Assembly (NCBI GenBank): GCA_030018855.1
Contig: JASEHG010000024.1
Span: forward strand, 1-16,220
DNA: 16,220 bases
Origin: Candidatus Brocadiaceae bacterium
Lineage (GTDB): Bacteria; Planctomycetota; Brocadiia; Brocadiales; Bathyanammoxibiaceae
Direction: 5' to 3'
The position numbers were made by a program, and so were the translations under genes. Numbering within the stretch: the stretch's first letter is position 1; every line of letters begins with the position of its first letter. The notes beneath the pieces were generated by a model that saw nothing but the letters and a program-made list of their open reading frames with translations, did not search any database and had not been told where the DNA came from. Shown one piece after another: positions 1 through 14,486 of the stretch.

Positions 1-801
1 ATATCCCAGCTCCCCCTTCAGGCAGGCCTGCACCCCCCTGGTGAGCTGACCGGTGGTGGGGTCTACTAGTTTCAATTCCAGAGCCGTCCGCTTCTTTATC
101 AAACCCATCTCCCTGATGGTGGAGGCGAAAAGGGATTCAGTAATCATGTAACCGTCTTCGTCCACCAGATAGGTCTCGCCCGTCTCACCAAGCTTTACCC
201 CGCGCAACATCCTGGAGAGGGACATAACGTCCACCCTCAGGCTCACTACCCCAATGACCCTGTGCCTATCGTCCCTTACGGGACCTGAGACAAGGAGGGT
301 GGGCACACCCTTCTCCATCTCCCCGGACTCGTTCTGGATGGGAAGGGCAGAGGGGTGGACACGGGTTACGAAGACGTTACCCTTTAGTGCCTCCTGGAAG
401 TAATCAGATTCCGCCATACTTAGCTCCAGCAGGTCTTCTCTGGTAGATACCCTAATCCTACCCTGGTAGTCGGCAAGAGAGATTTCTTTGTAACCAAAAT
501 TGTCCTTTATGGATTGGAGTTGAGAAGTAAGCTCCTGGTACTCTTTGTCGCCCGGATTGAACCTTAGGAAGGAATTGATTAGATACTCCCCGGCCATAAC
601 CGTAACATGGGCCTTGCGCTCCTTCATCCACATGGAGACAAGCTCGGCCTGCTTGTGGCCCACGCTCTCCAGGTCTCTTTTCCCAGACTCTTGAAAGGCC
701 TTCTGTATCATGGGGAAACCCACCAGCCTGGTGGTCAGTAAGGGGACGCCGGAAAAGAGGAGGAAGAGGATTATCGTCCTACTACGAATAGAATCAAACA
801 T
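1..801 (-). CDS. Membrane-anchored Cache-type extracytoplasmic sensor protein, N-terminal 267 codons only. The output domain (kinase, MCP or cyclase) lies beyond the window edge.
   Basis: Hand translation of the minus strand from the ATG at 801-799 gives 267 sense codons with no stop, running off position 1. This is why it is absent from the ORF track. N-terminus MFDSIRSRTIILFLLFSGVPLLTT is a short cytoplasmic stub plus one TM helix. The periplasmic part contains Cache-like strings (GETGETYLVDEDGYMITES; HRVIGVVSLRVDV). An SD-like GGGAGAG sits 7 nt upstream of the ATG. An alternative in-frame ATG at 891 has no SD. Confidence 0.7.
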   Translation of the reverse strand, partial: MFDSIRSRTIILFLLFSGVPLLTTRLVGFPMIQKAFQESGKRDLESVGHKQAELVSMWMKERKAHVTVMAGEYLINSFLRFNPGDKEYQELTSQLQSIKDNFGYKEISLADYQGRIRVSTREDLLELSMAESDYFQEALKGNVFVTRVHPSALPIQNESGEMEKGVPTLLVSGPVRDDRHRVIGVVSLRVDVMSLSRMLRGVKLGETGETYLVDEDGYMITESLFASTIREMGLIKKRTALELKLVDPTTGQLTRGVQACLKGELGY

Positions 802-960
802 CTTCAGTCTCTCCCAGTGTAATGTGCCAGATTGCCTGGCCCGTTGGTTAAGTAAAAATTGTGCTACGCAAACCACGTACAAATTAGGCATGGGTAATGT
901 AGCACCAGGCAGAAAATCTTAGCAGACTGCGATGTCTTTGTCAATCGTGGCCGCTGAGCT

Positions 961-1084
961 TAGGGGGTAGGGAAGAATTGCATTGTAAATTGAAAATTGC
1001 AAATTTTAAAATTTAATCCGCCTCAGGCGGACCAATTTACACTTTACAATTTTCTGTTCCCTGGTCCCTACCCCCTACTCCCTA
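961..1084. repeat. Composite palindromic element in the divergent intergenic region. A 13-bp perfect outer stem encloses AT-rich word repeats and a small GC hairpin.
   Basis: TAGGGGGTAGGGA (961-973) is the exact reverse complement of TCCCTACCCCCTA (1066-1078). Inside are reiterated ATTGTAAA/TTTACAAT-type words, a perfect 14-nt palindrome AAATTTTAAAATTT (1001-1014) and the hairpin CCGCC-TCA-GGCGG (1018-1030). A related string CCTGAGGCGGACC recurs at about 1197-1209. Confidence 0.75.
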
Positions 1085-1110
1085 GTCTACACCGTCCATT
1101 TCAAAAGTTA

Positions 1111-1140
1111 TTGACATGATAGGAGGTAAACTGCTAGACT
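1111..1140 (+). promoter_or_regulatory. Candidate sigma70-like promoter for the 1256 ORF
   Basis: TTGACA (1111-1116), 18-nt spacer, TAGACT (1135-1140). Motif match only. Confidence 0.3.
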
Positions 1141-1255
1141 CTTCCCTTTAGGTATTATAGGGGCATCCGCCCGCCCAAAAGATGGCGGATTTTCAACCTG
1201 AGGCGGACCGCATTCCCACACTTCGGGCAGGATAAGAAGGGGAAAGGAGTATGAG

Positions 1256-1708
1256 ATGAGACCCTGGTTGACAGGGGTGGCGAGGCCACTCTTAACGGTA
1301 GTGGTGGTTTGGGGGTTGTCCATTCTTGTCTGGAATGGTCTTGTACTTGGAGAACTCAGACATCAATACTATCTCCTTGCTGAGACGGGTCACGAACCCG
1401 GGTGTGTGGTGGACATACATATTAATGATGAGCATGTTGCGGTGATAGAGCCAGAGGTTAAGAAGGAGATAGTGGACGTAACTTCTTTTGTGGAGGCAGG
1501 AGTTAACGAGGTAGTATTTGAGGCAGAAGCCCTTGCGGATGAGGGGGATGACGATGGCACAATAAGTATCCAGATAGGGTCTGGCACTTATAAGGATGGC
1601 AAGCTGAACTGGGAGGCCTTAAGTGTCCAGTACAGCGTGTCCAGGTCCCAGATAAAGAAGGAAAAGAAAGAGATTATCACCACCTCCCTTAAATTTGATG
1701 CCAGTTAG
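1256..1708 (+). CDS. Hypothetical protein with an N-terminal signal-anchor/TM helix (150 aa)
   Basis: ORF track entry. AGGAG lies about 8 nt upstream. The upstream ATG at 1250 runs into a TGA after two codons. N-terminal hydrophobic stretch LLTVVVVWGLSILVWNGLVL, then an acidic soluble domain with no motif I recognise. Confidence 0.55.
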   Translation: MRPWLTGVARPLLTVVVVWGLSILVWNGLVLGELRHQYYLLAETGHEPGCVVDIHINDEHVAVIEPEVKKEIVDVTSFVEAGVNEVVFEAEALADEGDDDGTISIQIGSGTYKDGKLNWEALSVQYSVSRSQIKKEKKEIITTSLKFDAS

Positions 1709-1738
1709 TCCTTACGGGGCGTAACAAAGGGGAAGGTC

Positions 1739-1766
1739 TTGAATTTTGTGTTTGTCAAGATATAAT
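1739..1766 (+). promoter_or_regulatory. Candidate sigma70-like promoter for the zinc-ribbon gene
   Basis: TTGAAT (1739-1744), 16-nt spacer, perfect TATAAT (1761-1766). GGAGG RBS about 8 nt before the ATG at 1810. Confidence 0.45.
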
Positions 1767-1809
1767 TTGTTAATCAGCAGTTAGCGTTTTGCTTTGGGGA
1801 GGTTAATGT

Positions 1810-2070
1810 ATGCCGACGTATGAGTATAGGTGTGAAGGTTGCGGTCATGAATTTGAGCTCTTTGAATCCATTAATGCCGGCAAGGTGAAGACCTGCCCCT
1901 CTTGCGGGAATAAGGCCAAGAGGCGTATTGGGACGGGGTCAGCCGTAATCTTTAAGGGGAGTGGTTTTTATCAGACGGATTATCGCAGTAAGGACTACCA
2001 CGACAAGGCCAAGGCAGAAAAGGGTGGCGGGGCCGCCCCAGGCGAGGCGTCCAAGGGGGGGAAACAATAG
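1810..2070 (+). CDS. FmdB-family zinc-ribbon protein (putative regulatory protein)
   Basis: N-terminus MPTYEYRCEGCGHEFE...CPSCG is the characteristic FmdB/CxxC-x(n)-CxxC zinc ribbon. It has a Gly/Lys-rich tail and a strong GGAGG RBS. Confidence 0.85.
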   Translation: MPTYEYRCEGCGHEFELFESINAGKVKTCPSCGNKAKRRIGTGSAVIFKGSGFYQTDYRSKDYHDKAKAEKGGGAAPGEASKGGKQ

Positions 2071-2081
2071 GCAGGGTGGTG

Positions 2082-2099
2082 GCGGGTCTCCAGACCCGC
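2082..2099 (+). terminator. Possible stem-loop terminator after the zinc-ribbon gene
   Basis: GCGGGTCT-CC-AGACCCGC, a perfect 8-bp stem, extended by AGGCAG (2069-2074) pairing with CTGCCT (2108-2113) and followed by GATTTT. There is no clean U-tract directly after the inner stem. Confidence 0.35.
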
Positions 2100-2138
2100 A
2101 AAATAGACTGCCTGATTTTGAGAAGACAGAGTTTGTTA

Positions 2139-2168
2139 TTGACAATAGAATGCGTACGATGTTATCAT
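2139..2168 (+). promoter_or_regulatory. Candidate sigma70-like promoter for the ACP-to-radical-SAM operon
   Basis: TTGACA (2139-2144), 18-nt spacer, TATCAT (2163-2168). It shares the TTATTGACA context with the 1111 candidate. Motif match only. Confidence 0.4.
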
Positions 2169-2257
2169 ATTTCAAATTTATTCCACCCGAGCGGGGTCTC
2201 TATAATCTAAAGGGTGGCTTTTTGTCTCAAAGGGTTTTAGAGTGAACAAAAAGGAGG

Positions 2258-2557
2258 GTGTATTTGGAGACACTGAGCACGGAAGAAGTAGAAAAGGATG
2301 TTACTGCCATAGTAGCAGAGGTGACCGAGCTAGATAGGGAGGAGATATGGCAGAAAAGGGAGGCCAACTTTTTCAAAGAACTGGAGATAGACTCCCTCCT
2401 GGCCCTGGAGATATTGGCCCTTATAGAAAAGAAGTTCAAGATTCAGATTCCTGAAGAGAAGCTGGTAGACATTACCTCTCTAACTGGCACCATCAATATG
2501 ACCAAAGCGGTCCTGTCTGAGAATGGAAGGCTCAAGGGAGAGCCTCAGAAGGCCTAG
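2258..2557 (+). CDS. Acyl carrier protein, dedicated and longer than canonical AcpP
   Basis: The phosphopantetheine-attachment motif EIDSLLALEI (DSL serine at about residue 46) sits in a small acidic helical protein. The tracked GTG at 2258 directly abuts the AAGGAGG SD (2251-2257). TTG at 2264, with 6-nt spacing, is the more plausible start. Confidence 0.85.
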   Translation: MYLETLSTEEVEKDVTAIVAEVTELDREEIWQKREANFFKELEIDSLLALEILALIEKKFKIQIPEEKLVDITSLTGTINMTKAVLSENGRLKGEPQKA

Positions 2558-2569
2558 GAAGGACCCTTT

Positions 2570-3019
2570 ATGGGTATCAGTTTTGAGGAGGTAAGGAGAC
2601 TAGTCCCTCAGAGGTATCCTTTTCTCTTCATAGACAAGGTGGTGGAGTTAGAGGAAGGTAAGAGGATCTTATGCCTAAAGAATGTCTCAGGAAATGAATC
2701 TTTTTTTGTAGGACATTTCCCAGAGTATGCCATAATGCCTGGGGTGCTGACCCTGGAAGCCCTGGCCCAAGCCTCCATAATCTTATTCAAAAAAAGCTTC
2801 CTTAAAGAAGAAACTTCCAATTCGGTATTCCTCCTGGCCTCTCTGAGGGCCAGTTTCGTAAAGCCTGTCTTCCCCGGAGACCAGTTACTCCTGGAAGTCA
2901 ACGTGGAAAAGGTGGTGTCCAAAGGGGCAATTGTGCAGGGTACGGCAAGGGTGGGGGAGGAGATAGTAGCCAAGGCCTCCTTGACCTTCGGTCTGGCTGA
3001 TAAGAGTTCTCTGGGTTAG
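2570..3019 (+). CDS. fabZ: 3-hydroxyacyl-ACP dehydratase FabZ
   Basis: Hallmark strings LVPQRYPFLFIDKV and GHFPEYAIMPGVLTLEALAQ, with the catalytic His and Glu present. Length is 149 aa. RBS AGGAAGGA is 7 nt upstream. Confidence 0.93.
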   Translation: MGISFEEVRRLVPQRYPFLFIDKVVELEEGKRILCLKNVSGNESFFVGHFPEYAIMPGVLTLEALAQASIILFKKSFLKEETSNSVFLLASLRASFVKPVFPGDQLLLEVNVEKVVSKGAIVQGTARVGEEIVAKASLTFGLADKSSLG

Positions 3020-3090
3020 ATTTGGAGATTTAGAGATTTGAGATTTAGGGATTTAAAATCTAAAAATCCAAAATCTCAAAATCTAAAATT
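3017..3090. repeat. Mirrored word array: about 5 x (R)GAGATTT followed by about 5 x AAAATCT(C), forming an imperfect hairpin
   Basis: The sequence reads TAGATTT GGAGATTT AGAGATTT GAGATTT AGGGATTT | AAAATCT AAAAATCC AAAATCTC AAAATCT AAAATT. The first TAG is the fabZ stop codon. The element ends 5 nt before the fabF ATG. Confidence 0.8.
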
Positions 3091-3095
3091 ATGAA

Positions 3096-4316
3096 ATGGA
3101 AAGGCGTGTAGTAGTCACTGGGCTGGGCGTAATTACCCCTATCGGTTCTGGCAAGGACAAGTTCTGGAAGGCCCTGCTGGAAGGGAAGTCAGGCGTAGGG
3201 GAGGTAACTTGCTTTGATACCTCAGGACACAAAGTCCATAGGGGTACGGAGGTAAGGGACTTTAATCCCAGGGACTACATTAAGAACGGGACCGTAGACC
3301 AGCTGGGTAAGGGGTCTCAGATGGCCATTGCGGCCACCAAGTTGGCCCTGATGGACGGGGGACTAGGGCTTGCGGAGGTTGACCCAACAAGGATTGGCGT
3401 ATCAGTAGGAACGACCGGGGGAGAGATACAGATACTGGAAAAGATAAACCTTATAAGATATGGGCAGGACGAAGACCATGTGGACATAGGCCTCTTTCTG
3501 AGGCATCCCTGCAACAATATCCCCTCCAACATTGCCAGAGAATTTGGCCTCAAGGGCCCCAACATTATTATTCCCACCGCCTGTGCAGCCGGCAATTACG
3601 CCATTGGTTACGCCTACGACCTTATAAAACTAGGGAGGGCTGATTATATGCTGGCAGGGGGGGCAGACCCCTTCTCCAAGGTGGCCTTTATTGGCTTTGG
3701 CCGCCTGGGGGCAGTGGCACCGGATATCTGTCAGCCCTTTGATAAAAACCGTAAAGGCATGCTTGTGGGAGAGGGGGCAGGCATACTATTACTGGAACCC
3801 CTGGATAATGCCCTGAAAAGGGGTGCCACTATCTATGCCGAGATTATCGGCTACGGCCTTAGTTGCGATGGGTATCACATCACTATCCCACACCCGGAAG
3901 GGGATGGGGTGGCCTCCTCACTGCGGAAGGCCCTGAAGAATGCCGACATAACCCCTGAGGACGTGCAGTATATAAATGCCCACGGGACCGGTACCGTTGC
4001 CAACGACAGGGCAGAAACTATCTCTATAAAGAAGGTCTTTGGGGACCATGCCAGGAAGTTACTGGTGAGTTCTATAAAGTCCATGATGGGTCACACCATG
4101 GGGGCGGCCAGCGCAATAGAGACGGTTACCTGTGCCCTGGTGGTAAAACATGACGTAGTCCCCCCCACTATCAATTATCAGACAAAGGACCCAGAATGTG
4201 ACCTGGATTATGTGCCTAACGTAAAAAGGGAACATCCCGTAAACATAGCCCTTAACACGGCCTATGCCTTTGGGGGTAACAACAGTTGTCTGGTTATAAA
4301 GAAGTTCTTGAATTAA
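3096..4316 (+). CDS. fabF: Beta-ketoacyl-ACP synthase II (FabF-type), catalytically complete
   Basis: N-terminus [15 protein letters not shown]. Active-site Cys is in [11 protein letters not shown], His in [10 protein letters not shown] and His in [21 protein letters not shown] and the C-terminal [11 protein letters not shown] are present. In-frame TAA at 3084-3086 fixes the start at 3096. No SD is visible upstream. Confidence 0.93.
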
Positions 4317-4362
4317 CCGCAACATGCAGCTCCTTTCCCTATATTTTTAGCCATACAGAGAA

Positions 4363-5589
4363 ATGCAGAAACGGGTCGTAGTAACAGGTATTGGGATTAT
4401 CAGCCCCATAGGCACCGGTAAGGAGGCCTTCTGGGGGAACCTGGCTGCGGGTGTCTCAGGGGTAAGGCCCGTTACCCTCTTTGACGTGAGTAGGTACACC
4501 AGCCGGGCGGCTGGAGAAATAACTGACTTCAGTCCCAAGACCTACCTTGGACAGAAAGGTATAAGGCATTTTGATAGGACAAGCCTACTCATAACTGCCA
4601 CCGCTGCTATGGCCCTGGAAGATGCCCGACTGGATAAGGTCTATGGGGAGGAAGATATAGGGATAGTGGTGGGGTCCACCTTTGGGAGCATTAACAGTAT
4701 ATCTACCTTTGACATGGACGCCCTCAGAGAGGGGCCCAATTACGTCAACCCAATGGATTTCCCCAATACCGTCCTTAATGCCCCCGCCAGCCGTGCCTCC
4801 ATTTTTTGCCAGGCTAAAGGGCTAAACTCTACCGTTTCCACAGGGGAGACCAGTGGGACGGACGCTATAATCTATGCCTCTGACTTTCTTAAGATGGAAA
4901 GGATAAAGGTGGTGCTAGCTGGGGGCGTTTATGGCCTTACGAGGGATATCTTCTGGGCGGCTTACAAGGCAGGGGTCCTCTCCGGCAGTAAAGACAGCCA
5001 ATCAGAAATATGCGCACCATTTGATAAGAGGCGGAACGGAATTGTACTGGGAGAAGGGGCCGCATTACTGGTCCTTGAGACCCTGGAAGATGCCCTGGCC
5101 CGTAAGGCCACCATATATGCAGAGGTCAAAGGTTATGGTACTGCCTTCAATCCCACGAGCCTGAGCCAGAGTGACCTCCAGGGTGGGGTAAGGGCAGTCT
5201 CCATGGCCCTCCAGGAGGCAGGCCTCGGCCCGCGGGATATATCCTATGTCTCGGCCAATGCCAACTCCAGCCCTAACGGCGACCGTATGGAGGCCACCGT
5301 TATAAAGGAATCCTTCAAGGAACGGGCAAAAAGCATCCCTGTTAGTGCCATAAAGTCCATGACCGGGGACTGCCTGGACGCCTCCGGAACCATGCAGTGT
5401 ATAGCCTGCGTCGGGGCAATCAATAACGGGATAATCCCCCCGACGATCAACTATCGGGAACCAGACCCATTATGTGACCTTGACGTAGTCCCTAACGTGA
5501 AGAGGGAAGCAGTGGTCAGACATGCCCTGGTACAGAGTTTTTCTTACACAGGCAACTGTTCTGCCATGGTACTGTCTAAATACTCCTGA
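4363..5589 (+). CDS. KS-like protein lacking the Cys-His-His triad (chain-length-factor-like partner of the preceding FabF)
   Basis: It has the same fold signature (KRVVVTGIGIISPIG, LAGG, PPTINY, DVVPN). By hand alignment anchored on LAGG, GYG and Y(I/V)xA, Cys is replaced by Glu (STGETSGTDAI), His1 by Ser (NPTSLSQ) and His2 by Asn (VSANANSS). The GH of IKSMxGH becomes GD. In-frame TAG at 4348-4350 fixes the start. Confidence 0.85.
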   Translation: MQKRVVVTGIGIISPIGTGKEAFWGNLAAGVSGVRPVTLFDVSRYTSRAAGEITDFSPKTYLGQKGIRHFDRTSLLITATAAMALEDARLDKVYGEEDIGIVVGSTFGSINSISTFDMDALREGPNYVNPMDFPNTVLNAPASRASIFCQAKGLNSTVSTGETSGTDAIIYASDFLKMERIKVVLAGGVYGLTRDIFWAAYKAGVLSGSKDSQSEICAPFDKRRNGIVLGEGAALLVLETLEDALARKATIYAEVKGYGTAFNPTSLSQSDLQGGVRAVSMALQEAGLGPRDISYVSANANSSPNGDRMEATVIKESFKERAKSIPVSAIKSMTGDCLDASGTMQCIACVGAINNGIIPPTINYREPDPLCDLDVVPNVKREAVVRHALVQSFSYTGNCSAMVLSKYS

Positions 5590-5595
5590 CAATGA

Positions 5596-7008
5596 ATGGG
5601 CAGACCCTCGGCAAAACGGTACGACGTAGTAGTCATTGGGGCGGGTATTGGGGGGCTGGTCTGTAGTGCCTTCCTGTCCAGGAAGGGGAAGAAGGTACTC
5701 CTGGTAGAACAGCATTCTCAGCCTGGGGGTTACTGCACTACGTTCAAGAGGAAAGGTTTCGTCTTTGATGCAGCCGTGCATCATATAGGAGGTTGCGGAC
5801 GCTACAGTATCGTGGGGAGGTGTCTGAAAGAGTTGGGTCTGGGAATGGAGTTCTTCAGGCTGGACCCTATGGACAGCCTCATCTTCCCCGATTTTTCTAT
5901 TGATATTCCAGCAGAAATAGAGGATTATATAACTCTGCTGGGCAAGAAATACCCATTAGAAAAGGGACACGTTGAGAAGTTCTTTAAGGATTTTGTAAAA
6001 CTCTACTGGGCCATAATCAACGAGGCCTCAGATAGCCCAACCTTGAATAACTACAAGAATACGACGTATAAAGAGATGCTGGATAGCTTTTTTGAGGACG
6101 AGGGGCTGAAGAGGACCCTGGCAGGTCAGTGGGGCTATCTTGGTACGCCCCCTGGAGAGGTATCCAGTATAGGGATGTGCCAGATGTTGATAAATTACCT
6201 GAGGGATGGGGCCTATTACCCCAAGGGTGGCACACAGAACTTTGCCAATGGCCTGGCTAAGAATTTTACCGAATCCGGAGGTGAGACCCTCCTATCCACT
6301 ATGGCAGAAGAGGTCCTCATGGACGGTAGGAAGGTAAGGGGCGTTAAGCTGGAAGGAGGATGTGAGGCCCTGGCAGACGTAGTGGTTTCTAACGTGGATG
6401 CCAGGCAGACCTTTTCACGCCTCGTTAAAGAAGAGTTTGACCATACGTATTCAGAGAGGCTAAGGGGCATGAAAGAAAGCCCCTCCTATTTCCTCCTATA
6501 TCTGGGGCTTGACCCGGAGATTGACCTGAAAGGGTTCAGGAGAGGCTTTTATCACGGTCCGGGTAACCAGTGGAAATACGTATCTGCCCCCACAAAGGTG
6601 GATAGCAGCCTGGCCCCTGGAGGGAGACAGATTCTTAACGTGGTAGCCACCGTAGAGGAAAGTTACGAAGAAGTGAGGGACTGGAAGGCCCTGAAGGACA
6701 GGCTCACCCAGGAGAACATAAATTATCTTGATAGGCTGATACCCGCTCCAGGTGGACTCAGAAAGCACATAGAAGTAGTGGAGGCCGCAACCCCCAGGAC
6801 CCTGGAGCGATACACCCTGAATTCCAGAGGGGCTGCCTACGGGTGGGCAGTTACCCCGGAGCAGACAGGTTCGGGAAGGCTGGACCATCGCACCCCACTA
6901 GATAATCTCTTTCTGGCAGGACACTGGACGAATCCAGGGCCAGGAGTCTGTGCGGTAGTATCTTCGGGCTGGAGGGTGGCAAATCTTATACTAGGGAGTA
7001 GGGGGTAG
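5596..7008 (+). CDS. FAD-dependent oxidoreductase of the phytoene desaturase (CrtI)/COG1233 family
   Basis: N-terminal dinucleotide fold YDVVVIGAGIGGLVCSAFLSRKGKKVLLVEQHSQPGGY. C-terminal family motif LFLAGHWTNPGPGVCAVVSSG. Length is 470 aa. The start is 6 nt after the KS-like stop. Confidence 0.85.
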   Translation: MGRPSAKRYDVVVIGAGIGGLVCSAFLSRKGKKVLLVEQHSQPGGYCTTFKRKGFVFDAAVHHIGGCGRYSIVGRCLKELGLGMEFFRLDPMDSLIFPDFSIDIPAEIEDYITLLGKKYPLEKGHVEKFFKDFVKLYWAIINEASDSPTLNNYKNTTYKEMLDSFFEDEGLKRTLAGQWGYLGTPPGEVSSIGMCQMLINYLRDGAYYPKGGTQNFANGLAKNFTESGGETLLSTMAEEVLMDGRKVRGVKLEGGCEALADVVVSNVDARQTFSRLVKEEFDHTYSERLRGMKESPSYFLLYLGLDPEIDLKGFRRGFYHGPGNQWKYVSAPTKVDSSLAPGGRQILNVVATVEESYEEVRDWKALKDRLTQENINYLDRLIPAPGGLRKHIEVVEAATPRTLERYTLNSRGAAYGWAVTPEQTGSGRLDHRTPLDNLFLAGHWTNPGPGVCAVVSSGWRVANLILGSRG

Positions 7009-7070
7009 GGGATAGGGAGTAGGGAAAAGAGAAAAGATTGCTACCCCCTACACCCTACCCCCTACACCCT
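6992..7070. repeat. TAGGG-word / CCCTA-word long imperfect hairpin, with G-quadruplex-capable arms
   Basis: Left arm TAGGGAGTAGGGGGTAGGGGATAGGGAGTAGGG (6992-7024), 16-nt A-rich loop, right arm CTACCCCCTACACCCTACCCCCTACACCCT (7041-7070). GGGGGTAGGG (7001-7010) is the exact complement of CCCTACCCCC (7053-7062). The left arm encodes the last codons and the TAG stop (7006-8) of the CrtI-like gene. Confidence 0.85.
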
Positions 7071-7092
7071 AATTAAAGAGGAGGTAAGTTAT

Positions 7093-8544
7093 ATGAAAAA
7101 GATGCTCCTGATTAACCCTCATCCGCCAGGACGCCACGGGGAGGAGAGTATCCATGTCATCGTCCAGATGCCCTTGAACCTGGCTTACATCGCCGCCCTC
7201 ACACCAGGGGATTGGGAGTTTGACGTCGTTGACGAGAACATAGAACTCGCCCTGGACGAAAAGGAACAGGAGATAACTTTTGAGCCTCCCGACCTGGTGG
7301 CCATCACGGCACTGACCTATCAGGCCCCAAGGGCCTACAGGATCGCCATGGCCTGCAGGAAGCGCGGCATACCTGTCATCATGGGTGGTATCCATGCCTC
7401 CGTCTGCTCTGAGGAGGCCGTCCAGTACGTGGACGCCGTTATAACAGGCGAGGCGGAGACCGTCTGGCCAGAGGTAATCAGGGACTTTGAGCAGGGACAG
7501 CTGAAAAAGATATACAACGGCGGCCTGCCCCCTCTTTCTACGTTGAAAAAAGTCTACCCCGACAGAGAACTCCTGAAGAAGAAGTACGGCTACAAGTTTT
7601 CCTCCATAATCACCACCAAGGGCTGTCCCAACCGGTGCGACTTCTGCAGTGTACCTACCTTCCAGGGGCAGAAATTCAGGGAAAGACCCTATGAGGACGT
7701 CCTGGACGAGATGGCCGCTACGGACTACAAAGGTCTGATGTTCGCCGAAGATAATTTCTACGGGCACAGCGTAAAGTCTGCTGAACGGGCCAAAAACCTC
7801 TTCAGGGGTATGATAGACAGGAACCTGGGCAAGAACTGGTTGGGCTTCACTGCCCTGAACATCGGCCTTGACCCTGAGGTCCTACAGCTTATGACTAAAT
7901 CGGGCTGTTTTGGATTCCTTGTGGGTATTGAGTCCACCAACGAGCAGGTCCTTCAGAAGATGAACAAGAAGGTCAACCTCAGGCTGGGGACTACGAGTTA
8001 CAAGGACTGCATAAAGAAGGTCCACGACGCAGGCCTGATTGTCTGGGGTTCGGTGGTATTCGGTGCTGACGGAGACGACAAGGACTCCTTTAAGAGGATG
8101 GTGGACTTTATCCTGGACTGCCAGGTAGATATCCTCACCTACGGCCTAGATTGCCCATTTCCCAAGACCCCGTTATTCTACAGGTTAGATGCCGAAAGGA
8201 GACTCTTCAGGAAGAATTTCCCCTGGGACTGGCAGTACTATGAGACCGCACACATAGTCCACCGCCTCGTGGATATGACACTGGATGATTTTGTTAACGG
8301 CATGCAGTACGTTTACGACCATCTCTATGCCGGAGACAATCTCAGGATGCGTTTCAAGAATTCCATTAAGGCCACAGGCAATCCCCGCAACTCCATGTTT
8401 GCCCTGAGGGTAAGCCAGGATTGGGACCGGGTCTTCAAACAGGTGCTGGAGAACCTCCACAAGCTACAGGAATCAGGGGATTATTATAAGGATTGTTATA
8501 AAGAGACCGGTAAGACTGCCGTCTCTCTTTCAGGCACTGCTTAG
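7093..8544 (+). CDS. B12-binding-domain radical SAM enzyme (class B rSAM)
   Basis: N-terminal cobalamin-binding-type Rossmann segment (LVAITALTYQAPRAYRIAMACRKRGIPVIMGGIHAS), followed by the radical SAM cluster motif GCPNRCDFCS (CxxxCxxC). Strong RBS AGAGGAGG 8 nt upstream. Confidence 0.9.
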   Translation: MKKMLLINPHPPGRHGEESIHVIVQMPLNLAYIAALTPGDWEFDVVDENIELALDEKEQEITFEPPDLVAITALTYQAPRAYRIAMACRKRGIPVIMGGIHASVCSEEAVQYVDAVITGEAETVWPEVIRDFEQGQLKKIYNGGLPPLSTLKKVYPDRELLKKKYGYKFSSIITTKGCPNRCDFCSVPTFQGQKFRERPYEDVLDEMAATDYKGLMFAEDNFYGHSVKSAERAKNLFRGMIDRNLGKNWLGFTALNIGLDPEVLQLMTKSGCFGFLVGIESTNEQVLQKMNKKVNLRLGTTSYKDCIKKVHDAGLIVWGSVVFGADGDDKDSFKRMVDFILDCQVDILTYGLDCPFPKTPLFYRLDAERRLFRKNFPWDWQYYETAHIVHRLVDMTLDDFVNGMQYVYDHLYAGDNLRMRFKNSIKATGNPRNSMFALRVSQDWDRVFKQVLENLHKLQESGDYYKDCYKETGKTAVSLSGTA

Positions 8545-8549
8545 AAGTT

Positions 8550-8609
8550 GTAGGGGCGTATTGTTCGCTATTATGCGAATCTGCCTAAGGCATGGCAATA
8601 CGCCCCTAC
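8550..8609. repeat. GTAGGGGC-family element folding as a three-way junction
   Basis: Perfect 14-bp outer stem GTAGGGGCGTATTG (8550-8563) / CAATACGCCCCTAC (8596-8609). It encloses two mini-hairpins, TTCGC-TATTAT-GCGAA (8564-8579) and TGCC-TAA-GGCA (8582-8592). It starts 6 nt after the rSAM stop and has no U-tract. Confidence 0.8.
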
Positions 8610-8684
8610 CGCGGCCCCTCTAATAACCACTCTTAAAGGAGCTTACGTCTGGTGCAAATCTTTGCATGAGGCCCGATTTTGCTA

Positions 8685-8712
8685 TTGACTTTTGGTTTTT
8701 ATTCGCTAAACT
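8685..8712 (+). promoter_or_regulatory. Candidate distal promoter for the Rieske/cyt b operon
   Basis: TTGACT (8685-8690), 16-nt spacer, TAAACT (8707-8712). Palindrome TGCAAA-TC-TTTGCA (8653-8666) lies just upstream. Motif match only. Confidence 0.3.
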
Positions 8713-8837
8713 ATCCGTGCTTCTCAGTGAGGAGGGAGGCCAATAGCCATCTACCTAAAAGGCAGGAGGTTCAGTATCACAGGGGCCGCGCCTACGGTAC
8801 TTGTGATTCGGTGGAGTTGTCTGTACGAAATGCGGGC

Positions 8838-8865
8838 TTGAAATTTCCATTTAGAATGCTATAAA
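8838..8865 (+). promoter_or_regulatory. Candidate proximal promoter for the Rieske/cyt b operon
   Basis: TTGAAA (8838-8843), 16-nt spacer, TATAAA (8860-8865). It would give a leader of about 100 nt containing the 8891-8939 hairpins. GGAGG RBS at 8961-8965. Confidence 0.4.
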
Positions 8866-8890
8866 ATACAACATCCTTCTCCTAATAGAC

Positions 8891-8939
8891 GTAGGGCACG
8901 GTTTTAACCCTGCCCAATATGGACAGACCTTTAGGTCTG
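8891..8939. repeat. Leader hairpins of the GTAGGG / CTGCCCA word family
   Basis: GTAGGGCACGG-TTTTAA-CCCTGCCC (8891-8915) is a stem with one mismatch. It is followed by CAGACCT-TT-AGGTCTG (8924-8939). The word CTGCCCA(A)TA occurs at 8911, 8936 and 11472. Confidence 0.5.
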
Positions 8940-8971
8940 CCCATACTACGTACACCTCTTGGAGGTAGGCG

Positions 8972-10873
8972 ATGGCTCACGAGGATAGGTTTACCATAGA
9001 TTTAGGACAGCCTGAACTCAATATAAACATCCTGCCACGTCTTGCTATCCGCTATAAAGGTTCCTTCCAAAAGCTCCTCTCAGAAAGAAAATACAAAGCA
9101 GACGTTGCCAATGACCTACAATGGTTCCACAAAAACGTACCCTGCCGTGAGGCCTGTCCTGTAGGGACTAATGCCAGGGCCTATGTCACGGCCATTGCTA
9201 AGGGGGATTACCAGGAGGCCTACCTTGTAGCTCGTGAAAACAACCCCTTTGTATCTGTCTGCGGTAAGATTTGTAATGCCCCCTGTGAACCTGTCTGCAC
9301 CAGGAGTAAGCTGGACGAACCGGTGTCCATTAGGGCCCTGAAAGGGTTTGCGGTAGAAAAAAACCGTCTGGGCACCAGAGAGGTCTACCAGTGGCTCAAT
9401 AAAAAGAAGGGGAAGGTGTCGCTTGCTGGAAAGGCAGAAGTTCCTAATATAGCAATAGTTGGAGCAGGGCCTGCGGGCCTGTCTGCCGCACACGACCTCG
9501 CTCTTATGGGTTACAAGGTGAAACTACTGGAGGCCTCCAGCCAGCCTGGTGGTATGTTGAACAACGCCATCCCCGCCTTCAGGCTAGACAGAGAGGCAGT
9601 AAAAAGAGACATAGAAGGCATCCTCTCGCTGGGTATGGAATTAGAGATTAACACCAGGTGTGGAGAGGACTTCGGTATAGATGAGCTCAGGCAGAAGTAC
9701 GATGCCGTACTCTTAGCCGCCGGCTTACAGAAGGGTAGGTCCCTGGACGTGCCTGGCATGGAACTAGCAGGGGTATCTCAGGGGCTGGATTTCCTCAAAG
9801 AAGTGGCCTCCAGGGGGAGGGCCTCATTGGGGACGAAGGTTGTGGTAGTGGGCGGGGGTAGTATGGCTGTAGAGGTGGCCCGTACTGCACGGCGATTAGG
9901 GGTATGGAATACAAAGGTAACTGTGGTCTCTTACGAGGCATCCAGGGGTACGAAGCCCGGAAAGCCGGGGCAAGAGATGACAGCAGAGGATACGGAGATT
10001 GCTGAGGCCCTACAAGAAGGGGTGGTATTCTATCCAGGGCTTGGTCCTAGACGCATATTGGGAGAAGGCGGCAGGGTAACGGGTCTGGAACTGGTCCCGG
10101 TTGTGGCACTAGACCGTGACGGGGGAGGGCGATATAAACCTGTCTTTGGGCAAAACGGTTCCAGCGTTATAGAGGCAGACACGGTACTCCTGGCGATTGG
10201 CCAGGAGCCTGATACTGCCCTTCTCCAGAATACGAATTGTGGGGTGCGGATTGCGGAATCCCGCATCCTGCATTCCGAATTCCGCATTCCTGGGGCGGAT
10301 GGGGTCTTTGTCTGTGGTGACCTGGCTGGTGCTGGGCATGTAGTGGAGGCGGTTGCCTCCGGGCAGAAGGCCGCCCTTGCCATCCATAATTACCTGGAAG
10401 GCAAGGGTTCTCTTGGACTAGGCGAACTGCGCCCTGTAGTACCCGTCCACCACCACGAGAAATCGGACACCTTTACCAAACGGCTTACGATAGGTCGGAT
10501 TCTGCCTCCAATAGCACCCACAGATGCCAGGCTCAGGGGTATGGACCCCGTGGAAGGGAGTTATTCTGAGAAGGTTGCCAGGAGGCAGGCGGAGAGGTGC
10601 CTGGACTGTACGGTAAGCCCAATGATAGGGCCCTACCATCCTTGCACCGCCTGTGGCGACTGTCTGGACGTCTGCCCTACAGAGTGTCTTTCTTTAAGGT
10701 TCATGAATAATAAAGACCTCAGTTTTGGTGACAGTTGCATAGAGGAGGCTGAGGGAGAAGGCCCCTGGGTGGGGTTAATTATAAATGAAGAGGAGTGTGT
10801 CCACTGCGGGGCCTGCGCCGAGGCCTGCTGGTCGGATGCCATATACATGGTAAAGTTCAAAGAGATGGAATAG
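8972..10873 (+). CDS. GltD-like FAD/NAD(P)H-dependent iron-sulfur oxidoreductase with a C-terminal 2x[4Fe-4S] ferredoxin domain (NAD(P)-linked subunit of the Rieske/cyt b complex)
   Basis: N-terminal GltD-type Cys clusters (CREACPVGTNARAYV; VCGKICNAPCEPVCTR). Two dinucleotide folds (IAIVGAGPAGLSAA; VVVVGGGSMAVEVA). GVFVCGD motif. C-terminal CTACGDCLDVCP and CVHCGACAEAC. Confidence 0.88.
   Translation: MAHEDRFTIDLGQPELNINILPRLAIRYKGSFQKLLSERKYKADVANDLQWFHKNVPCREACPVGTNARAYVTAIAKGDYQEAYLVARENNPFVSVCGKICNAPCEPVCTRSKLDEPVSIRALKGFAVEKNRLGTREVYQWLNKKKGKVSLAGKAEVPNIAIVGAGPAGLSAAHDLALMGYKVKLLEASSQPGGMLNNAIPAFRLDREAVKRDIEGILSLGMELEINTRCGEDFGIDELRQKYDAVLLAAGLQKGRSLDVPGMELAGVSQGLDFLKEVASRGRASLGTKVVVVGGGSMAVEVARTARRLGVWNTKVTVVSYEASRGTKPGKPGQEMTAEDTEIAEALQEGVVFYPGLGPRRILGEGGRVTGLELVPVVALDRDGGGRYKPVFGQNGSSVIEADTVLLAIGQEPDTALLQNTNCGVRIAESRILHSEFRIPGADGVFVCGDLAGAGHVVEAVASGQKAALAIHNYLEGKGSLGLGELRPVVPVHHHEKSDTFTKRLTIGRILPPIAPTDARLRGMDPVEGSYSEKVARRQAERCLDCTVSPMIGPYHPCTACGDCLDVCPTECLSLRFMNNKDLSFGDSCIEEAEGEGPWVGLIINEEECVHCGACAEACWSDAIYMVKFKEME
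10244..10286. repeat. In-frame copy of a 43-nt GCGGAAT/ATTCCGC word element inside the GltD-like CDS
   Basis: GTGCGGATTGCGGAATCCCGCATCCTGCATTCCGAATTCCGCA matches the intergenic 11405-11447 at 33 of 43 positions (hand count). The first 7 and last 13 nt are identical, over the same overall length. It encodes VRIAESRILHSEFRI. Confidence 0.45.
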
Positions 10874-10888
10874 GGAGAAAAATGTTTT

Positions 10889-11392
10889 ATGTTTAAACCA
10901 GTGGCGAAGGCTGAGGCTATAGACCCGAAGAAGATTGCCCGTAGGGAGGCTATCCGAAAGGGCCTCTTCTGGGCCTGTTGGGGGGTCTTCATTGGGTTTG
11001 CCGGGATATTAGGGGCAAGCATAGTGAGGTTTGCGTATCCCAGGATAGTCTTTGAGCCCTCCAGTATATTTAAAGCCGGTAAACCGGACGACTACAAGGT
11101 AGGTTCGGTTGCGCTTATCCATGGTAGAGGGGTCTTTGTGATAAGGACGGAAAAGGGATTCTATGCCCTATCAGCCAAGTGTACCCATTTGGGATGCCAG
11201 CCCATCTGGTATGAGGACCAGCAGGTCTTCAAGTGTCCGTGTCATGGCGCCCGTTTTGATAAGGAAGGTATTAACTTTGCCGGTCCAGCCCCCCTGCCAT
11301 TGCCCAGGTTCCACCTGAGCCTCTCCCCGGATGGCCGTTTACTGGTAGATAAGTCAACAAACGTGGGTATGGACTTCTTCCTGGAGGCATGA
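10889..11392 (+). CDS. Rieske [2Fe-2S] protein
   Basis: CTHLGC...CPCHGARFD cluster-binding boxes. N-terminal Arg-rich segment (IARREAIRKGLF) followed by a TM helix, as in Tat-dependent Rieske anchors. The upstream ATG at 10882 hits a TAA after 4 codons. Confidence 0.92.
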   Translation: MFKPVAKAEAIDPKKIARREAIRKGLFWACWGVFIGFAGILGASIVRFAYPRIVFEPSSIFKAGKPDDYKVGSVALIHGRGVFVIRTEKGFYALSAKCTHLGCQPIWYEDQQVFKCPCHGARFDKEGINFAGPAPLPLPRFHLSLSPDGRLLVDKSTNVGMDFFLEA

Positions 11393-11404
11393 AAAGGGCG
11401 TGGA

Positions 11405-11447
11405 GTGCGGAGTACGGGATTCTGGACTCCGCCTTCCGAATTCCGCA
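11405..11447. repeat. Intergenic 43-nt GCGGA/TCCGC word element
   Basis: Contains the hairpin GCGGAGT-N12-ACTCCGC and the 3' string TTCCGAATTCCGCA. It is paralogous to 10244-10286. Confidence 0.55.
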
Positions 11448-11452
11448 CAGTT

Positions 11453-11477
11453 GTAGGGGCAGGGCTTGCCCCTGCCC
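11453..11477. repeat. GTAGGGGC-family hairpin
   Basis: GTAG-GGGCAGGG-CTTGC-CCCTGCCC (8-bp stem, 5-nt loop). It is preceded by GTT as in the 8547 copy and followed by ATA. Confidence 0.7.
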
Positions 11478-11502
11478 ATAAGAAAGGCGAGGTAAGATTG
11501 GA

Positions 11503-12123
11503 ATGAAGTGGGTACCGTTAGGCCTTGTGAGATATACCGTCTGTCTGGGCGGGCTCAGTGTGTTCTTCTTCCTGTTATGCATCCTCACCGGGCCATTCCT
11601 GATGCTTTATTATGTGCCTGACGTGAACCGTGCCCATGCCGACGTGATGGATATTATGCAGGTAGTGCCCTTTGGGGCCTTTGTCAGGAACGTCCACCGC
11701 TGGTCGGCCTGTCTTATGATTGTCTGCGTACCCGCACACATGACCAGGGTATTCCTTCAGGCCGCATATAAGCCCCCGCGCCAGCTCAACTGGCTGGTAG
11801 GGATTACGCTGCTAATCCTTACCTATCTCATGTGTTTCACGGGCTACATGCTCCCCTGGGACCAGGAGGCCTACTGGGGCGCCACCATCGGGGCCACCAT
11901 GGCGGAGAACTCCCCTTTCCTTGGGGCAAAAGGACCCTTTAGCGTACTTCCGCCAGATAAGGACATACATTACATAATGCTGGGTGGTACCGTGTTAGAC
12001 CAACCGACGCTCAGCCGTTTCTTTTTCGCGCACTGTATCGCTATCCCAGGTGCCCTCGCAGGGTTAATGGGATTCCACTTTTTCAATATCCACAGGGCCG
12101 GTGGTATGTCGGGCCCATTATAA
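11503..12123 (+). CDS. Cytochrome b, N-terminal (b6-like) subunit
   Basis: Helix B heme ligands HRWSACLMIVCVPAH (H-x13-H) and helix D HCIAIPGALAGLMGFH (H-x14-H). N-terminal VCLGG matches the YCLGG heme-ci cysteine context of b6. In-frame TAA at 11479-81 fixes the start. Confidence 0.92.
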   Translation: MKWVPLGLVRYTVCLGGLSVFFFLLCILTGPFLMLYYVPDVNRAHADVMDIMQVVPFGAFVRNVHRWSACLMIVCVPAHMTRVFLQAAYKPPRQLNWLVGITLLILTYLMCFTGYMLPWDQEAYWGATIGATMAENSPFLGAKGPFSVLPPDKDIHYIMLGGTVLDQPTLSRFFFAHCIAIPGALAGLMGFHFFNIHRAGGMSGPL

Positions 12124-12137
12124 CCAGGGAACAACCT

Positions 12138-12938
12138 ATGGCAGAAAAGATCGTTGAAGAAGGACCAGTAACCGCAGAGGGCAAAGAAAAGCTGAGACTC
12201 CTCACAGTGGTGAGGGGTGAGACCCTGCGGAATAGGGACATCTACGAGAGACCTCCCAAGTACGAACTCTTCTTCCCCAATTTCGTGATGAAGGAGTTGT
12301 GCGTGGGATTGGCCTTCCTAATAATTATCTTTATGTGGGCCTACTTTAAGGATTCGCCCCTTTACGAGTTGTCTGACCCCGCTGAGACACCTTCACACAT
12401 AAAGGCCGCATGGTACTTTGTGGGATTACAGGAGATGCTGGCCTATTTTGACCCCTATCTGGCAGGGGTGATTATCCCCTCCATGATACTGGCCGGGCTT
12501 TATCTGATACCCTTTATTGACCCAGACCCGGTGAAGGGGATAGGCCGTTTTGCCTTCAAGGAGAGGAAGTTCGCCATCGGCTGTTTCCTGGGGGGGGTTG
12601 CCATGTGGTATGGCCTCCTCCTGGTGGGCTGGTTCTTCAGGGGACCTTACTGGAGCTTCTACTGGCCGTGGGAGGACCACTCGGTAGTGAAGGCCACGGA
12701 AGTAGCCCTCTGGAGCTTCCCCCTCCCAGCAGGGATAGCCTTCCTCGTGTGTTATGGGATGTTGGTGCTTATCCTCCCCGCCGTTATCTTCCAGAACTTC
12801 TTCTTCCGGCTGGGGTTGATAAGATACCTTATCACGTTTAACCTCTTTGCGGTCATGTGTTTCGTACCCATCAAGATACTTCTGAGAAGCGCATTTAGTG
12901 TGAAATATATACTTGTAACACCATGGTTCAACATTTAA
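12138..12938 (+). CDS. Cytochrome b C-terminal subunit (subunit IV-like, extended with extra TM helices)
   Basis: AAWYFVGLQEMLAYF aligns with the PEWYF(Y/L)P Qo-site segment of subunit IV / cyt b C-terminal domains. Multiple hydrophobic helices. It starts 14 nt after the cyt b stop. Confidence 0.85.
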   Translation: MAEKIVEEGPVTAEGKEKLRLLTVVRGETLRNRDIYERPPKYELFFPNFVMKELCVGLAFLIIIFMWAYFKDSPLYELSDPAETPSHIKAAWYFVGLQEMLAYFDPYLAGVIIPSMILAGLYLIPFIDPDPVKGIGRFAFKERKFAIGCFLGGVAMWYGLLLVGWFFRGPYWSFYWPWEDHSVVKATEVALWSFPLPAGIAFLVCYGMLVLILPAVIFQNFFFRLGLIRYLITFNLFAVMCFVPIKILLRSAFSVKYILVTPWFNI

Positions 12939-12966
12939 GAGGAGACCGCTGAAAAACATGCGCAGT

Positions 12967-13039
12967 GTCATTCTGAGGGAGCGAAGCGACCGAAGAATCT
13001 CAGTTGAAACGGGAGATTCTTCGCTTCGCTCAGAATGAC
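12967..13039. repeat. Long three-segment hairpin (CATTCTGAG...CTCAGAATG type)
   Basis: Left arm GTCATTCTGAG-ggag-CGAAGCGA-ccga-AGAATCTC, loop AGTTGAAACGG, right arm GAGATTCT-TCGCTTCG-CTCAGAATGAC. That is 27 bp in three helices with two 4-nt bulges and no U-tract. Confidence 0.85.
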
Positions 13040-13084
13040 AGGACGTATCATTGAGACTTTTGCAGAGGTCTCAAGAGACTAAAA

Positions 13085-14338: not shown

Positions 14339-14404
14339 AGGGTAATTAGAGGAGGGGAGGTGATAAGACAAAACGTGTTATGTGTGCCCGCCGAACTACG
14401 CCGA

Positions 14405-14473
14405 AGGCAAATTTGCCTGAGGCACGAGCGGATTCTAGTCACCGGTAAGAAATTTCTAGACAGATAACTCTAG
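14405..14473 (+). promoter_or_regulatory. Palindrome plus three TCTAG words upstream of the HAO-like gene (possible operator/internal regulatory region)
   Basis: Perfect 14-nt palindrome AGGCAAATTTGCCT (14405-14418). TCTAG occurs at 14434, 14455 and 14469 (21-nt and 14-nt spacing). The RBS-like AAGGGG is 7 nt before the ATG at 14487. Confidence 0.3.
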
Positions 14474-14486
14474 AAAGGGGAAAAAT

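Follow-up and report, generated by a model that had tools for sequence, protein, structure and literature searches.

A predicted ketosynthase/chain-length-factor-like pair with a variant dead site in the ladderane-associated gene cluster of Candidatus Bathyanammoxibiaceae

Background

KS1 and KS2, the two genes analyzed here, stand side by side on a stretch of 16,220 nucleotides (the window; contig JASEHG010000024.1, positions 1 to 16,220 of the forward strand, assembly GCA_030018855.1 of a Candidatus Brocadiaceae bacterium) and encode a ketosynthase (KS) with an intact catalytic triad and a paralog that has lost it. Their closest described relatives are amxFabF2 and amxFabFmut, two proteins of anammox bacteria. 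How ladderane lipids are made is unsolved; few parts of the candidate pathway have been characterized biochemically, this KS pair among them. Rattray et al. 2009 (PMC2649909) had already listed the degenerate site of Kuste3606, which reads Val/Asn/Glu and has Arg in the gate position. A detailed account of the pair was given by Granatino et al. (bioRxiv 10.64898/2026.05.19.726425, May 2026; hereafter the preprint), who demonstrated the heterodimer with the proteins of K. stuttgartiensis (KustE3605/3606) and Brocadia fulgida.

According to the preprint, amxFabF2 and amxFabFmut are each inactive alone and co-purify once they are co-expressed; amxFabF2 by itself did not crystallize. The pair, and not the single subunits, decarboxylates malonyl-amxACP (ACP, acyl carrier protein) and forms acetoacetyl-ACP. 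Crystals of the heterodimer at 2.6 Å and 2.1 Å reveal a single functional tunnel. Residues Phe135, Thr138 and Val139 of amxFabFmut line the acyl tunnel of the active subunit, and the amxFabFmut mutations V139G and F135G/V139G altered probe-length preference in crosslinking assays. The authors speak of a KS/chain-length-factor-like heterodimer ('amxFabFhet') and state that both amxFabF2 and amxFabFmut are expressed.

The host of KS1 and KS2 belongs to another branch of the anammox bacteria. The window shares about 91-98% nucleotide identity, roughly 95% over the gene cluster that contains the pair, with contig MHYW01000013 of the groundwater metagenome-assembled genome (MAG) RIFCSPHIGHO2_12_FULL_52_36, which Zhao et al. 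(2022) assigned to Ca. Bathyanammoxibiaceae, a family that branches deeply within the anammox order Brocadiales. This identity and the Rieske/cytochrome b and HAO-like genes located downstream both mark the host as an anammox bacterium.

Results and discussion

An intact ketosynthase beside a degenerate paralog

KS1 (3096..4316, 406 aa) and KS2 (4363..5589, 408 aa) are encoded on the plus strand, 46 nt apart, and both carry the N-terminal and the C-terminal beta-ketoacyl synthase Pfam domains. The two proteins align over their full length with 37% identity (pairwise alignment, E = 7e-86), in agreement with a preliminary description of this DNA, made from the sequence alone, that had called them alignable end to end.

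We assigned catalytic positions in an alignment of KS1, KS2, 120 database homologs and E. coli FabF (EcFabF; one residue off PDB 6okg_A). The reference triad is C163, H303 (NAHGT) and H340 (SMTGH) in EcFabF; the B. fulgida crystal-structure paper, that is, the preprint, numbers the same three motifs C165/H298/H335. KS1 retains the complete triad: the nucleophile Cys163 in PTACAAG (codon TGT, 3582..3584), the first catalytic histidine His296 in AHGTG (3981..3983) and the second, His333, in KSMMGH (4092..4094). In KS2, the corresponding positions are occupied by Glu162 (codon GAG, 4846..4848), Asn299 (5257..5259) and Asp336 (5368..5370), so that neither Cys nor His is found at any catalytic position of KS2 in this alignment. 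The gate also differs, being Phe392 in KS1 (4269..4271; B. fulgida Phe394, EcFabF Phe400) and Tyr395 in KS2. The lysine equivalent to EcFabF K335 is kept in both proteins, as Lys328 and Lys331, respectively.

That one copy is intact and the other stripped of its catalytic residues had been proposed in the preliminary description, and this stands; its assignment of the triad contains an error. For KS1 it had correctly picked the Cys of PTACAAG and the His of AHGTG, together with a histidine in YHIT that is H261 and aligns with EcFabF H268, outside the triad. For KS2 it had read the dead site as Glu-Ser-Asn, of which only the Glu survives, the corrected site being Glu162/Asn299/Asp336. The change from GH to GD that it reported in KS2 is real, but it is the third triad position itself and not an extra change.

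Orthology to the crystallized anammox heterodimer

Searches against PDB sequences separate the two subunits cleanly. KS1 matches chain B of 9s5h with E = 5e-201 and chain C with only 3e-70; conversely, KS2 matches chain C with 2e-166 and chain B with only 3e-80. Chains B and C are the B. fulgida amxFabF2 and amxFabFmut of the preprint. At the level of sequence, KS1 and KS2 are thus the reciprocal best matches and orthologs of amxFabF2 and amxFabFmut (9S5H/9S5I), respectively. Like the B. fulgida and K. stuttgartiensis genes, they belong to the same six-gene cluster in the same order, align with their counterparts over the full length, and have the triad intact in one subunit and no triad residue in the other. 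The tunnel residues F135, T138 and V139 of B. fulgida amxFabFmut correspond to F133, T136 and V137 of KS2 and are conserved, as are, in the active subunit, the gate Phe, A164, F203 and M337 (KS1 Phe392, A162, F201 and M335). One tunnel residue differs, Ala110 of B. fulgida being Gly108 in KS1. Compared by tblastn with loci of other anammox genera, KS1 is 70-75% and KS2 58-65% identical.

About 45 anammox loci of three families, the Bathyanammoxibiaceae, Scalinduaceae and Brocadiaceae, share the six-gene order (ACP, FabZ, KS1, KS2, phytoene-desaturase-like protein, radical SAM enzyme), and every one of them has an intact triad in KS1 and none in KS2. The set is the ladderane-associated 'Cluster I' of anammox bacteria. 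As to gene order within the pair, the preprint text places amxFabFmut 'just upstream' of amxFabF2. In the window and in every anammox locus examined, FabF2 is transcribed before FabFmut, which agrees with the KustE3605/3606 numbering.

A housekeeping FabF identity was considered for KS1 and rejected, as KS1 scores 441.8 bits on TIGR03150, under the equivalog cutoff of 493.75; it passes only the broader subfamily model NF005589 (422.6 bits, cutoff 387). KS2 falls below the TIGR03150 cutoff as well, with 352.2 bits. The non-housekeeping role suggested in the preliminary description is consistent with these scores.

Taken together, orthology, residue states, synteny, and patterns of conservation and selection form the basis of our interpretation: KS1 and KS2 very probably constitute an obligate heterodimeric ketosynthase, the Ca. 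Bathyanammoxibiaceae version of amxFabF2/amxFabFmut. The KS/chain-length factor (CLF)-like heterodimer reading of the preliminary description is supported because the orthologous pair has been shown experimentally to be such a heterodimer. This interpretation is correct but already published, at the sequence level in 2009 and for structure and function in 2026; the additional suggestion that the pair shields a reactive polyene found no support. Current understanding is not overturned here: what we describe is a known system in a further lineage, where the dead site takes a variant form.

Selection on the degenerate subunit

KS2 has lost all three catalytic residues, and one may ask whether it is a decaying, functionless duplicate of KS1. 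We hold this to be next to impossible. The KS2 reading frame is unbroken in this window and, as far as the contigs cover it, throughout about 45 loci, 104 of its 408 positions are invariant across the 120 homologs, and expression of the ortholog is stated in the preprint. The dN/dS ratio of KS2 against three relatives is 0.03-0.08, a range equal to that of KS1 and of the genes for FabZ, the phytoene-desaturase-like protein and the radical SAM enzyme; KS2, matching its neighbor genes, is therefore not a pseudogene. The KS2-type proteins form a single clade apart from the active KS with 100% bootstrap, and the duplication that separated KS1 from KS2 is therefore old, preceding the anammox families. 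The pseudogene interpretation, which the preliminary description had named among those that would undo its own, was rejected on the dN/dS values and on conservation. KS2 is under strong purifying selection, an observation that appears to be new.

Which part of KS2 is under the strongest constraint was then assessed by the entropy of 121 KS2-type sequences. The most conserved 15-residue stretch spans residues 133-147 (FPNTVLNAPASRASI; 4759..4803, plus strand), with a mean entropy of 0.08 against a protein mean of 0.73. It contains F133, T136 and V137, all three invariant. The former Cys position, on the other hand, has an entropy of 1.53 and falls within the most variable sixth of positions. 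The contrast between a variable lost-Cys position and a most conserved tunnel-lining loop appears to be new as well. It indicates that selection preserves the tunnel-building part of KS2 and not the position of the former catalytic nucleophile: within the dead subunit, it is the tunnel wall that is selected and not the former catalytic site. The same heterodimer system reaches the anammox family with the deepest branching yet named, its chain-length loop unchanged and its dead site different.

The second most conserved stretch of KS2, residues 328-342 (SAIKSMTGDCLDASG; window 5344-5388; entropy 0.125), surrounds the lost second His and includes the invariant Lys331 and the uniformly acidic position 336.

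These patterns also bear on the exact role of the dead subunit. KS2 might only fold, stabilize or activate KS1 without setting chain length, in which case 'chain-length factor' would be a misnomer. The failure of orthologous amxFabF2 to act or crystallize alone fits this idea, and the chain-length evidence in the preprint is indirect, consisting of crosslinking kinetics from reactions that did not go to completion and that, with the C6 probe, were poorly reproducible. We nevertheless consider a purely structural role unlikely, since the V139G and F135G/V139G mutations in the dead subunit shifted probe-length preference, and since no part of KS2 is more conserved than the tunnel residues and what surrounds them, as expected of a tunnel wall and not of a generic scaffold.

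Proposed working of the pair

In the model that we favor, an obligate KS1-KS2 heterodimer, the sole working active site would be that of KS1 (Cys163/His296/His333, with Phe392 as gate). KS2 would adopt the same thiolase-type fold without performing condensation, which it presumably cannot catalyze because its site reads Glu162/Asn299/Asp336. It would complete the dimer, its helix-loop-helix loop (Phe133, Thr136, Val137) contributing part of the wall of the KS1 acyl tunnel, and its partnering would both activate KS1 and bias it to short or medium chains. Malonyl units would come from the dedicated ACP encoded two genes upstream. Malonyl-ACP would be decarboxylated to acetyl-ACP and condensed to acetoacetyl-ACP; carrying out both steps, the complex could therefore prime its own pathway. 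It would work with the adjacent specialized FabZ, within a six-gene cluster thought to build ladderane lipids, and the final product of the pathway would accordingly be expected to be a ladderane lipid. For the orthologs it has been demonstrated that the heterodimer forms, that it is active and that the dead subunit contributes to the tunnel, and by analogy all this is likely to hold in this organism.

Several points weigh against this model. The direct experiments concern the B. fulgida and K. stuttgartiensis orthologs, the proteins of this organism being known from sequence only. Even for the orthologs, only decarboxylation and acetoacetyl-ACP formation were seen, with no longer elongation, the chain-length data come from a non-physiological crosslinking reaction, and the link between cluster and ladderanes is indirect (all three from the preprint). 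In the literature that we found, no ladderanes are reported for Bathyanammoxibiaceae. A count of the net charge of the helix-loop-helix segment and the partner helix did not reveal the electrostatic asymmetry said to drive heterodimerization, nor did it do so even in Brocadia pituitae (locus L012), the crystallized species B. fulgida not being among our loci; the count is thus uninformative. Finally, our AlphaFold2 model of KS2, built from a 12-sequence alignment, is of low confidence (mean pLDDT 61.6, pTM 0.71), with scores under 50 in the interface segments 106-162 and 192-230.

A glutamate in place of the nucleophile

All 25 of the closest KS2 database homologs (67-98% identity) have Glu at the Cys position. 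Being common to the entire group, this residue is not there by chance. In these homologs and in the window KS2, the first His position is Asn, the second Asp or Glu, and the gate Tyr. Other anammox families show other states: in Brocadiaceae the Cys position is Val, the first His Asn, the second His Glu and the gate Arg; in Scalinduaceae the Cys position is Thr or Val, the first His Cys, the second His Glu and the gate Asp. Val and Thr are the only residues that the preprint gives for the Cys position of amxFabFmut, and Glu is therefore an undescribed variant. It does not exclude membership in Cluster I, because this position also varies among accepted members. The preliminary description had called Glu in place of Gln unusual; it is not the oddity of a single gene but is fixed in this lineage. 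Its fixation here, together with its recurrence in a candidate non-anammox outgroup, appears to be new.

A neighbor-joining tree unites the anammox KS2 proteins in one clade (100% bootstrap), and the Glu clade, that of the Bathyanammoxibiaceae, is sister to Scalinduaceae plus Brocadiaceae (92% bootstrap). The most similar non-anammox sequences, from loci L039 and L040, are 51% identical to KS2 and also have Glu. Glu may thus be the ancestral state of the KS2 family; this is no more than plausible, the nearest outgroup being placed with 48% bootstrap and L047, another near outgroup, having Lys.

The fixation of Glu162 in 25/25 homologs leads to a further question, namely whether KS2 has a catalytic function of its own. 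Glu162, possibly together with Asp336 and Lys331, might serve another reaction, such as the coupling of a preformed ladderane unit and a short acyl chain proposed in 2009, or a malonyl-ACP decarboxylation like that performed by Gln in KSQ/CLF proteins. Lys331 is invariant and position 336 always acidic among the 120 homologs, Rattray et al. (PMC2649909) proposed a distinct substrate and function for Kuste3606, and the dead subunit retains a tunnel of its own in the preprint's crystal structure. We find this reading very unlikely all the same. Other anammox families have Val or Thr at the Cys position, and related dead-KS paralogs from non-anammox loci have Leu, Ile, Phe, Lys or Ala; with residues so varied, the position allows no assignment of a family-wide chemistry. 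Decarboxylation requires two histidines, and both are lost. According to the preprint, moreover, the orthologous dead subunit is inactive alone, its tunnel has no access to a catalytic triad, and ACP docking is not predicted there.

A more restricted hypothesis would confine the chemistry to part of the family. The dead subunit of Bathyanammoxibiaceae and of L039/L040 would keep a charged pocket (Glu162/Asp336/Lys331), perhaps ancestral and functional, binding a cation or polar ligand in the second tunnel or aiding malonyl-ACP decarboxylation, and this role would later have been lost in Brocadiaceae and Scalinduaceae through Glu to Val/Thr changes. We regard such a scenario as quite improbable.

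Dead-KS pairs outside the anammox bacteria

Locus L040 (positions 1-21200 of a 1.8 Mb contig of the 'uncultured delta proteobacterium' MFD00822.bin.1.250) carries genes in the order ACP, FabZ, KS, dead KS (Glu/Gly/Glu) and phytoene-desaturase-like protein, followed by three B12 radical SAM genes, and L039 is similar. The core genes of L040 are 45-61% identical to those of the window. The 'ladderane' core is therefore not confined to anammox bacteria, and the presence of an active KS and a dead KS beside phytoene-desaturase-like and B12 radical SAM genes in such genomes bears on the origin of the ladderane machinery. L040 also contains two more KS/dead-KS pairs and genes for an AMP-ligase, a 3-hydroxyacyl-CoA dehydrogenase, two enoyl-CoA hydratases and a TetR protein.

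Pairs of active and dead KS are further seen at ten loci in MAGs of Acidobacteriota, Omnitrophota and Thermodesulfobacteriota (L044, L046, L047, L049, L055, L057, L059, L060, L073 and L078). Their Cys position holds Leu, Ile, Phe or Lys, Glu replaces the second His throughout, and the equivalent of Lys335 is kept except in L047. In the anammox lineage Ca. Subterrananammoxibius californiae (L077, 7133-11320), the best match is a radical SAM-KS-dead KS arrangement (Phe/Asn/Glu) with 33% identity to KS2, nearer to the kuste2803-2805 cluster than to Cluster I. An 8 kb contig labelled Thermodesulfobacteriota (L014) contains the whole of a Scalindua-type cluster, its dead site reading Thr/Cys/Glu, and is nested within Scalinduaceae; this contig is probably mis-binned.

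The gene cluster and its surroundings

All six genes of the cluster lie on the plus strand. The first (2258..2557) encodes a 99-aa ortholog of the anammox-specific acyl carrier protein amxACP, with a Pfam PP-binding domain and the phosphopantetheine site in EIDSLLALE; its best PDB matches are the amxACPs 7auf (6e-39), 9s5i_E (3e-35) and 7qv0_D, ordinary ACPs matching at about 1e-6. It is followed after 12 nt by an amxFabZ ortholog (2570..3019, 149 aa, Pfam FabA-like), a 3-hydroxyacyl-ACP dehydratase whose PDB matches are 7qv0_A (9e-63) and 8ayi (1e-62), against 1e-29 for ordinary FabZ. A gap of 76 nt separates FabZ from KS1. Only 6 nt downstream of KS2 lies the gene of a 470-aa phytoene-desaturase-like flavin amine oxidoreductase of the kuste3607 type (5596..7008), and 84 nt further the last of the six, encoding a 483-aa B12-binding radical SAM enzyme of the kuste3608 type (7093..8544). 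About 90 nt upstream of the ACP gene, a sigma-70-like match (TTGACA-18-TATCAT, 11/12 with a TG extension; 2139..2168, plus strand), recognized by consensus alone, is a possible operon promoter.

The next operon starts 427 nt after the radical SAM gene. It occupies 8972-16220 and encodes an NAD(P) oxidoreductase with Fe-S domains, a Rieske protein, a split cytochrome b (halves at 11503-12123 and 12138-12938), a multiheme cytochrome and an HAO-like multiheme protein, the latter cut by the right end of the window. Among the loci, those of the Bathyanammoxibiaceae type (L001-L003) are the only ones in which the lipid cluster adjoins this operon. The same three loci alone have, conserved upstream of the cluster, a 150-aa protein (1256-1708) that carries a hydrophobic segment at its N terminus and matches no Pfam family, and an 86-aa zinc-ribbon (Zn_ribbon_8) protein (1810-2070). 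At the left end of the window, a partial gene on the minus strand (1-918, 306 aa) encodes an N-terminal membrane segment and a dCache_1 sensor domain (E = 8e-21). Rfam and tRNA scans detected no non-coding RNA or tRNA in the window.

Comparison with other ketosynthase systems

Housekeeping FabF (E. coli, B. subtilis; TIGR03150) shares its fold and Cys-His-His chemistry with KS1. Unlike KS1/KS2, it forms a homodimer that has two active sites. Among non-anammox proteins, B. subtilis FabF matches KS2 best in both sequence and fold: in the PDB sequence search KS2 matched it with 2.5e-79, the actinorhodin KS with 1.1e-56 and the actinorhodin CLF (1tqy_B) with 3.3e-42, and a Foldseek search of the low-confidence KS2 model against PDB returned FabFs, with B. 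subtilis 4ls8/4ls5 first (TM 0.66). 9S5H was absent among the best 50 Foldseek matches (PDB library to 2026-04-08).

The classical type II polyketide synthases (PKS) provide the obvious functional parallel. In the actinorhodin KS/CLF (1TQY), as in KS1/KS2, the gene of an active KS adjoins that of a KS-fold paralog without the nucleophilic Cys, and the likeness to the anammox pair extends to the heterodimer, to a dead subunit that shapes the tunnel and to priming via malonyl-ACP decarboxylation. Classical CLFs reportedly carry Gln at the Cys position (Bisang et al. 1999; Keatinge-Clay et al. 2004), where KS2 has Glu162. The genomic context differs too, that of KS2 resembling a fatty-acid synthase (ACP, FabZ) without cyclase or aromatase genes. 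KS2 is CLF-like in its presumed working but, judging by the missing Gln and by sequence similarity, stands outside the clade of classical actinomycete CLFs. The ishigamide KS/CLF pair Iga11/Iga12 (PDB 6KXD-6KXF) is of the highly reducing type II PKS kind and part of an actinomycete secondary-metabolite pathway; Iga12 was not among the best 60 of 147 PDB sequence matches of KS2.

Other dead-KS pairs had been noticed before, namely Kuste2804/2805 and those of syntenic clusters in Desulfotalea psychrophila, and KS paralogs of Rhodopirellula baltica have Asp or Glu at the Cys163 position (Rattray et al. 2009, PMC2649909). Pairs of this type resemble KS1/KS2 in that an active KS stands beside a degenerate paralog, often near B12 radical SAM and phytoene-desaturase-like genes, and the same pairing recurs in L039, L040, L077 and the ten MAG loci listed above. 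Their dead paralogs differ from KS2 in their dead-site residues and are 33-51% identical to it, and none of these pairs is known to make ladderanes. The B. fulgida and K. stuttgartiensis pairs, of the same cluster in a different family, are thus the closest described counterparts of KS1 and KS2.

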